From assembly GCF_035084215.1 (NCBI RefSeq), contig NC_090359.1:11842001-11906000 (forward strand): 64,000 nucleotides of DNA, in the 5' to 3' direction. Position numbers and translations under genes: made by a program. Position 1 is the stretch's first letter. Each line of letters opens with the position of its first letter. Positions 11,517 through 25,781 of the stretch are shown piece after piece. Below the pieces are notes generated by a model. The model saw only the letters and a list, made by a program, of their open reading frames with translations. It made no database searches and was not told the origin of the DNA. The DNA is from Heptranchias perlo (Eukaryota).

Positions 11517-11729
11517 CTGTATTGCAAAGCTCTGATTGGCTCTGGATATCAATCTCTCCCCCAGAGCCCTGTCCTTTGTTAATTGGTGCCTGGATTCATG
11601 GAAGATTCCTGATTGGCTATCAGGGATTGTCAATCATCATTGGTGCTGTCCATTCCTGGTTTCAATGCAGGCTGTCCCAGTAGTAGAAATACAAGAGCTT
11701 GGATCAGAAGAAAATAGTTCCAGAACTTT
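11517..11729 (+). promoter_or_regulatory. Orphan copy of the ferritin promoter/5' UTR between Tx1 A and B
   Basis: Matches 25529-25741 upstream of ferritin 1. Four ATTGG boxes at 11535, 11582, 11612 and 11639; TAGAAATA at the TATA position; ends in ccagaac followed by a T-tract. Confidence 0.9.
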
Positions 11730-11848
11730 TTTTTTTTTTTTTTTTTCCTTTTTTTTTGTTTTTTTGTGTATTAGGCCCCCCTTTTATAAGAAGGGGGGGT
11801 GTGGGGTGTGCTTAAATACTAAAAACCAAATAAACCAAAACCAAGTGT

Positions 11849-14800
11849 TCAAATTAAAATTTTATTATCCACGTCCAGGATGCACTCCAGCCCCTGCGGT
11901 GCCCACCGGTCGCGGAAAGCCTCGAGCGTACCGGCAGACACCGCGTGCTCCATCTCCAGGGCCACCCGGGCGCGGAGCATTCCGCGGAAGAGAGGCAGAC
12001 AGGCCGAGCGACCGCCCCCACGGACCACGATCATCCTAGACCTGTGGATGGCCACCTTGGACAGGCCCAGGAGCAGGCCCACGAGAACGTCCACCGACCT
12101 GCCCGCCCCCCTCCTCACCGGGCGGCCAAAGATCAGGAGCGTGGGACTGAAATGCAGCCAGAACTTGAGGAGCAGCCCCTTCAAATAATGGAACAGGGGC
12201 TGCAGTCTCGCACACCCAGTGTACAGATGGAACACGGACTCCTCCAGGCCGCAGAAATCACAAGCGGCCTGGGTGTCCGTGAAATGGCGTAACCGCCGGT
12301 TGCACGCGACTGCTCCGTGCGCCACCCTCCACCCCAGATCCCCAAAGTAACACGGGAGGACCCCTGTATAGAGAGCCTCCCAATGGGGACCCCCGTCTCC
12401 GCCGGACGGCAGGATGGTACGCCAGGGCGTGTCCGGCCGAGAGACGAGGGCGAGGAAGTGGATGGTGTGCAGGAGCAGCCCGTACAGGAAATCCCTCCGC
12501 GCGGTGTGAAACGGCACGGAGGGAATTTCCGAGAGACGACTCAAGTTGTGAGGCGCGGCCCCCCGAGGGAGGTTCCGGGGTTTGGCGCCGAGGAGGAACT
12601 CCGTCCGAACGGGGGTCAGGTCGGACGGGATGGCTCCGCACGCCTGAGCCGCCTCCACATCCCGAGTGGAGTCAGGGCCGAGCGCCGATTTCAACGCCCG
12701 GATGGCGATGGCCGCGTCCCCGGCACGCCACGAGGACATCCGTGCGGCGAGCGCCCACGGCTCCAACCAACCCGACCCACCGCCATCCAGGACGTCCCTG
12801 ACTCTGGTCACCCGACCGGCCACGGCCCTCCGCACCGACAGCCGCGAGCGGCCGAAGCCGATATCGCGGAGGAACGGATTCCCGAGCAGCGGCTCCTGCA
12901 GGACGGCCGCTACCCCTGACGGGCGAGAGCTCCGACCGGAGGCGACCGTGTTCCAGACCCTGAGCAGATCCTGGTAAAAGACAGGCAGCTCCTGCAAAGA
13001 CGTGCGGCCGCCCACCAGCGAGATGAACAGGAGCTGCGTGTCGTAGTTCAGGCCGTGCAGCTGGCGGAAAAAATACGTCGCCAGCGCACGCCATCTAAGA
13101 GGACGCTCAACGTACAGGTATCGCCGCAGCGTCCGAAGGCGGAAAGTTGCCACCTGGGTGCGGACGCACACCAGCCCCTGACCGCCCTCCCTAAGCGGGA
13201 GACTCAGGACCGCGGCAGCGACCCAGTGTATCCCTCTGGCCCAGAAGAAGTCGACAAACTTCTTCTGAATCTTGGCGACAAACTCAGGGGGGGGGGGTCA
13301 AAGTGACCAACCGGTACCACAACATGGCGGCCACCAGCTGGTTTATGACCAGCACACGACCCCTGTAGGATAACACTCGGAGCAGTCCTGTCCAGCGCGC
13401 CAGGCGAGCGGCGACCTTGGCCTCCAGCTCTTCCCAGTTCGCCGGCCAGGCTTCCTCGGCAGGGCCGAGGTAGACTCCCAGGTACCGGAGGTGCGTGGTA
13501 CTCCAGGCGAAAGGCCTGAGCTCCTCCGGCAGGGAGTCCACCCGCCACTGACCCACCAGGAGTCCGGAACATTTCTCCCAGTTGATCCTTGCGGAAGACG
13601 CCGCAGAGTAGACCTCTTGGCACTCGCGCATCCTCCGCAAGTCAAGGGGATCCGTGACCACGAGGAGCACGTCGTCGGCGTAAGCCGAAAGGACGACCTC
13701 CACGTCCGGCTCGCGCAGAGCCAGTCCCGACAACCTCTTGCGCAAGAGGCGCAGGAAAGGCTCCACGCAGACGGCGTATAATTGGCCGGACATGGGGCAC
13801 CCCTGACGCACTCCTCTCCCGAAGCGAAGGGGCGCCGTCAAGGATCCGTTAACCTTAATCAGACACTCCGCGGCGGCGTACAGAAGTCGGATCCGGGCGA
13901 CGAAATGCGACCCGAACCCGAAAGCGCGCAGAGTCCCGAATAGATACTCGTGATCCACCCTGTCGAACGCCTTCTCCTGATCTAAGGAAAGGAAGGCGAC
14001 CGACAGACCAGCCCTCTGGGAATGGTGGATCAGGTCCCGGACCAGATGGATGTTATCGTGGATCTTCCGGCCCGGGACCGTGTAGGACTGGTCGGGGTGG
14101 ATCATGTGGGCCAGCACGGTGCCCAGGCGAGCAGACATCGCCTTGGCAAAGACCTTATAATCCGTGCTGAGGAGGGAGACCGGGCGCCAGTTTTTAAGGT
14201 TGCGGAGATCCCCCTTCTTAGGCAGCAGGACCACGACCGCCCTGCGCCACGAAAGGGGCATCTCCCCGGTCGCCAGACATTCCCCCAGGACCCGCGCGTA
14301 GTCGCCCCCCAGGACGTCCCAGAAGGCCCTGAGGAACTCCACGGTCAGCCCGTCCAGCCCCGGGGACTTGCCCCTGGAGAGCTGGTGGAGGGCGCCGGTC
14401 AGCTCCGCCAAACTGAGCGGAGCGTCCAGACGCTCGGCGTCCTCCGGGCCGACCTTCGGCAAGTCCTCCCACAAAACTCTGCGCGCCTCCTCGCTGGACG
14501 GATCCGGAGAGAACAGAGCCTCGTAGAAAGATCGAGCCCGGGCCCTGACTCCCTCCGGGTCCGAGACGAGGGACCCGTCGTCGGCCAGCAGCGTAAGGAG
14601 CTGCTTACGAGCCCCCCGCCGCTTTTCCAGCGAGTAGAAGAAGGGAGAGCCGCGGTCCAGGTCCCGCAGGAGCTGGAGCCGCGACCTCACGTACGCTCCT
14701 CGGGACCCGACCAGTTGCAGGTCCCTCAGAGCGTCCTTCCTCTCCTCGTACACCTGCCGCAGGGCCGGATCCTCGGCGGCCTGACCGAGACGGGACTCCA

Positions 14801-24850: not shown

Positions 24851-25528
24851 GACCTAAAGAGCCACACCCACCCCAAGTCTCGGGCCTACTGATGATTTTA
24901 GGCCTTTTTTTTTAAAAGAAGCCCTGAGGAAACCTCTCTCCCCGAATCCCAGAGCTTGGTTGGGAGAGGGGCCCCTTTGCTGGTTTTATTTCCCCCAGAA
25001 TATCCGGGAGAGCAAGAGAAGGTGGGAGGGATTAATGGTGGAATGGGAAGGAGGGAGTCTGCAGGGGTAGGCTGCTGCAGAAGTGGGTGGAAGAGGGGCG
25101 GGGTTGCACCTTAAAAGGTGGATCTTATTCTGCCTGTCTTCCAGTGGGCAGGGGGAGGAGATGTCTTCCCCGAGACAGCTGGAGCTGCCTAGGCTCAGTC
25201 CTCCAAAGATTTGAAAAGGAAAGTAACTTCAACCAGGCAGCTCCAGCTGTCCTGGGCCAGACACTTGGGGGGGACCCCTGTCCTCTGAAGTCCTCTTCCT
25301 CCCCCTACCTTCAGCCGACACACCTCACTGCACCGACCACCTCTTCCTCCCACTGGTTGGTGCTCTTTTTCTCCTTCTCCCTCCCTCCTTGTTGATGGTG
25401 GTTTCTCCTTCTTTCTCCTTCTCCTTCTCCCCAAGGGACCCAGGCAAGGGCCTGCTCTCTCTGCTCTCTCTGCTCTCCACTCCACTCAGTGGCAGTCCAG
25501 CCACAAACACCTCCAAGGCCTTGCTGGT

Positions 25529-25781
25529 CTGTATTGCAAAGCTCTGATTGGCTCTGGATATCAATCTCTCCCCCAGAGCCCTGTCCTTTGTTAATTGGTG
25601 CCTGGATTCATGGAAGATTCCTGATTGGCTATCAGGGATTGTCAATCATCATTGGTGCTGTCCATTCCTGGTTTCAATGCAGGCTGTCCCAGTAGTAGAA
25701 ATACAAGAGCTTGGATCAGAAGAAAATAGTTCCAGAACTTTCTAGGCAATAGAAATTAGTCCCAATATATAAATAGTGAAG
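25529..25781 (+). promoter_or_regulatory. Ferritin 1 promoter and 5' UTR
   Basis: Four ATTGG (reverse CCAAT) boxes shared with the promoters of ferritins 3 and 5; TAGAAATA where paralogs have TATAAATA. Confidence 0.75.

Follow-up and report, generated by a model that had tools for sequence, protein, structure and literature searches.

Retrotransposons that lack long terminal repeats (non-LTR elements) integrate through target-primed reverse transcription (TPRT), in which the tail end of the new copy is made first, from RNA. The 5′ end of R2 is reportedly integrated by homologous recombination, in work attributed to Fujimoto in 2004; the rotifer element R9 is said to leave a long duplication of 126 bp, in work attributed to Gladyshev and Arkhipova in 2009; and a study ascribed to Gilbert et al. 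in 2005 is said to belong with the templated insertions and bridged duplications of L1. Tandem dimers and arrays formed by double insertion are described for Drosophila R1 and jockey (10.1101/158386), and tandem SINEU-3 copies enclose a target-site duplication (TSD) (PMC4494074). In L1, the complementary DNA (cDNA) can pair with nearby homologous DNA and duplicate that DNA (10.1101/2024.08.27.596794), templates of <250 bp adjoining the insertion site have been reported for templated insertions, and tandem duplications bridged by L1 are found in tumours (PMC7058536). Homologous 5′ joining in R2 and the long TSD of R9 provide further context (PMC12203849, PMC4838377), and the Tx1 clade includes target-specific families, among them Tx1L in Tx1D, Keno in U2 small nuclear RNA (snRNA) genes, Kibi/Koshi and Tx1-Mar (PMC4494074). 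Here we describe a 64,000-nucleotide stretch of the Heptranchias perlo genome (contig NC_090359.1; hereafter the window, with positions counted from its first letter) in which three Tx1 elements lie head to tail upstream of a ferritin gene, each followed by an identical copy of a predicted ferritin promoter segment.

The array consists of minus-strand Tx1 copies A, B and C, with a 210-bp segment, P, after each, and ends at the intact ferritin gene 1 (F1). E denotes a further Tx1 copy, 35 kb from B, and ORF an open reading frame.

4465 to 4632, minus strand: 3′ end of the leftmost Tx1 (Z), with a B-type 3′ untranslated region (UTR; 95.5% identical to B, 84% to C), a compound tail and a host flank that is not P.
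4633 to 4784: run of 152 N, hiding the join between Z and A and any further units or P copy.
4785 to 11516, minus strand: Tx1 copy A, near full length, with ORF1 frameshifted, an in-frame stop in ORF2, and a separate haplotype over its 3′ 4.7 kb.
11517 to 11726, plus strand: P copy 1, predicted ferritin promoter segment, ending in ccagaac.
11727 to 18507, minus strand: Tx1 copy B with its tail; ORF1 (15785-17827, 680 aa) intact, a frameshift at a G run in ORF2; haplotype E-like across ~6.3 kb.
18508 to 18717, plus strand: P copy 2, identical to P copies 1 and 3.
18718 to 25528, minus strand: Tx1 copy C, its tail compound and longer than that of B; ORF2 (18872-22777, 1301 aa; endonuclease and reverse transcriptase) intact, ORF1 frameshifted at a G run.
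25529 to 25738, plus strand: P copy 3, adjoining ferritin 1.
25782 to 31323, plus strand: F1, with 4 exons, GT-AG introns and a 173-aa open frame; ATG at 25782.

The motif ccagaac recurs at 11720, 18711 and 25732, at intervals of 6991 and 7021 nt, and the threefold succession of tail, Tx1, promoter and ccagaac before the F1 ATG is as the preliminary description had it. No N occurs between 4785 and 53283. The GC-rich blocks of the window are minus-strand Tx1 elements with two ORFs; ORF2 carries Exo_endo_phos (apurinic/apyrimidinic endonuclease, APE) and RVT_1 (reverse transcriptase, RT) domains, and ORF1 has no Pfam match. As judged by sequence similarity, the elements are Tx1-clade non-LTR retrotransposons: their ORF2 and that of Xenopus Tx1L, one of the full-length matches of highest identity among those listed, share 50% identity across 1299 aa, and they bear 3′ poly(A)-type tails, as expected of this clade. 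The broken frames of B (ORF2) and C (ORF1), both at G runs, could be read errors.

P is identical across all three units (0/211 alignment columns in each pair), aligns with the promoters of the neighbouring ferritin genes F2, F3 and F4 (0/200 shuffles reach the score in each case) and contains four ATTGG (reverse CCAAT) boxes. At the TATA position it has a variant, TAGAAATA; F2, F4 and F5 have TATAAATA, and F3 also has a variant, TATCAATA. P would be a ferritin promoter by homology, of predicted function and with a mutated TATA box. The tails of B and C begin at 11727 and 18718, each directly after ccagaac, but their structures differ: that of B reads T20 CC T9 G T7 GTGTATTAGG, and that of C reads T23 C T10 C T9 C T21 CC T CC T CTAATTAGG, with an internal T21 run resembling an older tail. 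The earlier observation that the tails start at the same base yet are unlike in length and composition is therefore confirmed. At P copy 3, ccagaac|TTTCTAGG would be an unfilled priming site, and the inferred nick lies ~43 bp past the TATA start in P, which the usual TATA-to-start spacing would place within the F1 5′ UTR. The priming site also sits inside a short inverted repeat, AGTTC-CA-GAACT (25727-25739).

The units are divergent at their 3′ ends and identical at their 5′ ends. Their 3′ parts differ by 3-4%, whereas the last 338 bp of the element together with P show 0/549 differences in all pairs of A, B and C, against 16.7 (A/B) and 23.3 (B/C) expected at the 3′ rates. One-breakpoint fits place the B/C switch near C 21171, with 101/2377 differences 3′ of it versus 8/4568 (0.18%) 5′ of it (Fisher 3e-38; 0/200 permutations), and the A/B switch near B 16479, with 143/4694 versus 8/2228 (0.36%; Fisher 6e-16; 0/200 permutations). 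The two switch points differ, as expected of separate events, and 5′ divergence is graded, being greater in A/B than in B/C. Copy C is accordingly foreign over its 3′ 2.4 kb and B-like from ~21171 onward. The 3′ 2.7 kb of B differs from E at only 10/2589 positions, versus 88/2672 and 102/2675 from its neighbours, which indicates that the 3′ part of B was imported. Plain tandem duplication of uniform age is ruled out by the 0/549 set against 16.7 or 23.3 expected.

Site patterns refine this picture. Across the 3′ 2.4 kb, 54 sites group A with C against B with E, 37 are private to C, 14 are private to A, 9 are other B-specific sites and 1 is three-way, so that no fewer than three source haplotypes must be present. 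Over the 5′ half of ORF2 it is A that stands apart, at 64 sites, with B equal to C. The separate ORF2 haplotype earlier ascribed to B, as against A and C, therefore holds at the 54 sites of the 3′ 2.4 kb, but not at the sites private to C there, nor in the 5′ half, where A is the odd one out. In ORF2, B and C differ by 51 synonymous and 51 non-synonymous changes (ratio of non-synonymous to synonymous rates, dN/dS, 0.35, p=1.6e-7), and dN/dS for A/B is 0.58 (p=0.006); this synonymous bias indicates that the differences arose in active Tx1 lineages, not by decay in place. The haplotype differences extend to within a few bases of the tail, whose structure differs too. At the opposite end, A, B and C have one 5′ junction in common, 18 nt shorter than that of E and of another Tx1 copy, D, a comparison qualified by the two 5′ UTR types (A/B/C versus D/E), which differ at 33/324 sites and whose element starts may differ. 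The common junction suggests that it was formed once and then copied.

The model that best fits these data, to which we assign a probability of about 45%, has different RNAs priming repeatedly at ccagaac|TTT and each new copy being completed by homology on the neighbouring resident element. A first Tx1 would have inserted head-to-head with F1, leaving 253 bp between its 5′ end and the ATG downstream. A nick at ccagaac|TTT, which closely follows the TATA position and lies 210 bp from this resident Tx1, would then have served time and again to prime the reverse transcription of later Tx1 RNAs made at other loci. Rather than closing through a short duplication, each new cDNA would have paired with the homologous resident at its left, and DNA synthesis would have returned to the nick by way of the 5′ part of the resident, its junction and P, copying all three. 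Every such event would add a unit made of tail, RNA-derived 3′ part, resident-derived 5′ part and P, leave a promoter beside the ferritin ATG and remake the priming site; the order A, then B, then C would fit the 5′ divergences. The product of such pairing and synthesis would combine a foreign 3′ end with a 5′ end like that of the left neighbour and would carry the host DNA lying between that neighbour and the nick; the one common 5′ junction would be explained as well. This strand-invasion signature, resembling synthesis-dependent strand annealing (SDSA) in its foreign 3′ part, neighbour-like 5′ part and duplicated host DNA, is clear for B/C, the same for D/E and weaker for A/B. Of the three routes offered in the preliminary description, joining of cDNA by homology to the resident element is the best fit. 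What the sequence shows is the anatomy, the polarity of divergence, three or more source haplotypes and two unlike tails at a single base; TPRT priming, strand invasion at integration, the order of events and promoter activity are inferences. Repeated reverse transcription at the ccagaac site is quite probable, being common to the homology-completion model and to two of the alternatives weighed below, insertion followed by crossover and the cDNA form of 3′ replacement.

Several observations weigh against homology completion at each insertion. One haplotype cannot separate joining during integration from later recombination. The 3′ blocks of A and C are alike, both at the 54 sites and in columns 676-1575 (1/300, 3/300 and 1/297 differences), and given those common sites some 3′ sequence of A/C could be local. 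The absence of A/B differences in 549 bp is not significantly tighter than the adjoining 1.7 kb (2.6 expected, P(0)=0.07), and A, B and E all lie within 0.5-0.7% in this 5′ region, so that the case for local copying is less strong in A/B than in B/C. CpG transitions account for 1/8 of the B/C 5′ substitutions, some of which may be sequencing errors, leaving the ordering soft. The ~210-bp ferritin promoter copy that the preliminary description gave to each Tx1 is borne out by the identity of P and its homology to the F2-F4 promoters, but the array starts further left than described, and at that end no P copy is visible, with a Z flank that is not P and the 152-N run intervening. Finally, no strong common priming motif was found across the Z, B/C, D and F4-fragment sites (the last a truncated Tx1 upstream of F4).

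Compared with described systems, the array resembles double-insertion tandems in its head-to-tail copies, identical host target spacer, reuse of one site and capacity to expand by unequal exchange. The spacer of those tandems is, however, a TSD of 33 nt or shorter that also flanks the outer end, whereas here it is a 210-bp segment that is a ferritin promoter by homology (RNA polymerase II type), and the visible outer flank, beyond an N run, is not P. Unlike those tandems, the copies also have one common 5′ end and are chimeras, foreign at 3′ and local at 5′. With L1 templated insertions our model shares a cDNA that comes off its RNA and anneals to homologous DNA close by, with duplication of host sequence; the L1 cases are single events in tumours or cultured cells, whereas the array lies in a genome assembly, is presumably inherited, is iterated at one base and rebuilds a promoter. 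R2 and R9 offer closure of the 5′ end by homology (R2) and an unusually long duplication (R9), but both are elements of ribosomal DNA (rDNA) with a restriction-like endonuclease (RLE), and the homology used by R2 comes from co-transcribed ribosomal RNA, not from a resident element. Neither a fixed long duplication at independent insertions nor an RLE endonuclease was found here. By analogy, the array would work like an iterated L1-type strand-invasion duplication, and not like R9 or a short-TSD tandem.

The preliminary description favoured repeated retrotransposition over plain duplication. Uniform-age duplication is indeed rejected, and the 3′ parts come from separate, selected lineages, but the gain of one unit per retrotransposition event does not follow, since crossover after insertion or 3′ replacement gives the same sequence. 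On one such route, a Tx1 inserted at ccagaac with a short duplication and then underwent unequal crossover with the left resident on the homolog or sister, making the same chimera and restoring P beside the ATG, an outcome that selection would favour. We consider this unlikely, if credible: it produces the same polar mosaic in a cluster that recombines actively (F3/F5 99.5% identical, exons 93-99% alike), and R1 tandems have been described as double insertion plus unequal exchange (10.1101/158386), but it takes two events per unit, at least twice in the array and perhaps again at D/E, and no short-duplication intermediate occurs in the window. Comparable odds attach to a history in which the P-tail junction was formed once, the array grew by unequal crossover, and the 3′ parts were replaced without gain of units, either by cDNA whose synthesis began in a tail already present or by ectopic gene conversion with dispersed copies as donors. 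The identical P and 5′ ends and the 3′ blocks common to A and C speak for such replacement, and conversion of long interspersed elements (LINEs) by dispersed copies is cited in PMC1920257. DNA conversion nonetheless gives no reason for 3′ anchoring in all three comparisons (A/B, B/C and D/E) or for rebuilding of the tail, and the cDNA version still needs repeated retrotransposition at the array.

The other two routes of the preliminary description fit poorly. P might ride on the element RNA through antisense or divergent transcription from the ferritin side, with the cDNA annealing to P in the target as co-transcribed rDNA does in R2. The elements do lie head-to-head with a CCAAT-rich promoter, and R2 integration is aided by flank homology (PMC12203849), but the 3′ 6.3 kb of B matches E (37/6332 differences), whose 5′ flank is not P, and P occurs in the window only before ferritin genes and in the array. 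This route would call for further P-flanked copies, outside the window, as donors; we think it improbable. A true 211-bp TSD made by widely staggered nicks, as in R9, would account for a spacer that is exact host target sequence and identical in each unit, yet it leaves unexplained the near-identity of B and C over 4.6 kb of element and the one 5′ end of A, B and C, 18 nt shorter than in D/E. No 210-bp duplication is present at D, E or the F4 fragment, and the endonuclease is of APE type, not RLE, making this the least probable of the explanations considered. Scarcely better are the chances of an assembly or polishing artefact that joined alleles or dispersed copies across the near-identical 5′ repeat. 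N runs at both arrays, frameshifts in homopolymer runs and the possibility that D/E and F3/F5 are false duplications would agree with an artefact, but the two distinct junctions of P, tail and 3′ end (B and C) must be in the data whatever their order, 4785-53283 contains no N, and the differences are synonymous-biased, not error-like.

Beyond the array, the window holds four further ferritin genes, a second Tx1 locus and two Tx1 fragments.

33521 to 36254, plus strand: F2, ferritin paralog with an open frame.
38481 to 40707, plus strand: F3, ferritin paralog with an open frame.
42701 to 42875, plus strand: more diverged Tx1-like 3′ fragment, 127/165 identical to B, in the opposite orientation, 839 bp from a ferritin ATG.
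43070 to 43244, minus strand: old 5′-truncated Tx1 3′ fragment of 175 bp, matching B at 149/172 positions and lying immediately upstream of the F4 promoter.
43540 to 46092, plus strand: F4, ferritin paralog with an open frame.
48679 to 53253, minus strand: Tx1 copy D, with a ~2.3 kb internal ORF2 deletion and an apparently re-primed tail.
53254 to 53283: 30 bp of F3/F5 upstream sequence after D, then a 133-N run.
53417 to 60117, minus strand: Tx1 copy E, ORF1 and ORF2 without stops.
60118 to 64000, plus strand: F5 region, a 99.5% copy of the F3 region 38094-41976, beginning exactly at the E 5′ junction.

D and E lie upstream of F5, and their last 1562 bp, including the 30-bp host junction, are identical (0/1562), against 33 differences in the adjoining 2578 bp (Fisher 1.8e-7; breakpoint chosen post hoc). 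The polarity is the same as in the A/B/C array with a different spacer, and with the 133-N run between them D and E could be two haplotypes of one insertion. The F5 region differs from the F3 region at 21 of 3882 positions, and the D 3′ flank is not F3-like save for a 29-bp match and a resemblance at the junction. A Tx1 at this gene-duplication junction may have acted as a bridge, or may reflect recombination between two insertions; should the F3/F5 copy run on past the window, the result would be a tandem duplication bridged by Tx1 and as long as ~10.6 kb. F5 could also be a false duplicate of F3. The 5′ junction of the minus-strand fragment upstream of F4, with GGAAA microhomology, is homologous to the E junction site in F3/F5.

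In the tail of D (48670-48745) the last target bases, ACTTTCAGA-T11-C, occur twice, as though priming had aborted and then started anew. In Z, the tail (4465-4545) comprises a T11-C-T10-G-T4 stretch, a 32-bp non-T insert and a second tail, possibly through a template jump; the insert has no match in the window better than E=0.78. Only the D site may resemble the F1 and F2/F3 sites (of 62721 background positions, 16 reach its score against F2, 141 against F3 and 89 against F1, with the register chosen post hoc), and the Z and F4-fragment priming sites show no similarity to the others. Shuffled sequences reach the score of the Z flank against ferritin upstream regions in 8/200 (F3), 52/200 (F2) and 175/200 (F4) cases. 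A match between the Z and D flanks (0/200 shuffles) was discounted, as it lies in an AT-rich stretch ~180 bp off the junction.

All five ferritin genes are on the plus strand, each with 4 exons, GT-AG introns and an open frame. F1 is a member of the heavy-chain-like ferritin family, multicopy in sharks, and the top matches of an F4 exon are shark heavy-chain-like ferritins at 86-94% identity, with many paralogs per species. Exons of F1-F5 are 93-99% alike between paralogs and most introns are unalignable, which suggests exon-level conversion or strong constraint. Past the TATA region, the F1 leader does not resemble the leaders of F2 and F3. No iron-responsive element or other structured RNA was found in P or any ferritin leader (0 Rfam matches at the gathering threshold across the whole window). 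Within F1 intron 2, 29397-29651 is a diverged copy (87.6%) of 30463-30721, which spans the intron end and the start of exon 3; the copy has a splice acceptor of its own, and its part 29401-29462 matches F3/F5 upstream sequence in inverted orientation.

In three insertion loci of the same orientation, the distance to the ferritin ATG downstream is 253, 295 and 387 bp, so that 3/4 of the loci lie within 500 bp upstream of one; the rough chance figure of 2e-4 comes from a ferritin-rich window and is uncorrected for window choice or selection. The elements share with target-specific Tx1 families a Tx1-type ORF2 and an apparent preference for a multicopy target. The Tx1 targets given in the literature covered are snRNA and 5S genes, microsatellites, satellites and transposons, whereas the candidate here, which lacks a sharp motif, is a promoter region in a multigene family that encodes protein. 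Target specificity has been defined by >20% of copies genome-wide being flanked by one target type (PMC4494074). Among the papers listed, our literature search, of limited coverage, found no report of Tx1 at ferritin genes. The component mechanisms are known; their combination into an iterated, promoter-rebuilding array was not found reported within the literature covered.

A wider reading, which we offer as possible though doubtful, is that this Tx1 family uses multicopy ferritin promoters as a niche. It would insert head-to-head 250-390 bp upstream of the ATG, may borrow divergent transcription there, and would stack in the transcribed leader by homology-completed TPRT that rebuilds both promoter and target. 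Bridging or recombination would duplicate whole ferritin genes, as where F5 begins at a Tx1 junction, and help ferritin expansion, and each trapped P would drive antisense transcription into the Tx1 that follows, an inherent trigger of silencing. If the homology-completion model is true, the array would be a natural, iterated case of a 5′-joining route that we found described only in single L1 events, in tumours and cells; it would record where cDNA passes from an RNA to a DNA template and so bear on how non-LTR 5′ ends are joined. A retrotransposon could then occupy a gene leader repeatedly with the promoter kept, the promoters of protein-coding multigene families would join the known Tx1 targets, and Tx1 would be linked to the growth of ferritin copy number in sharks.

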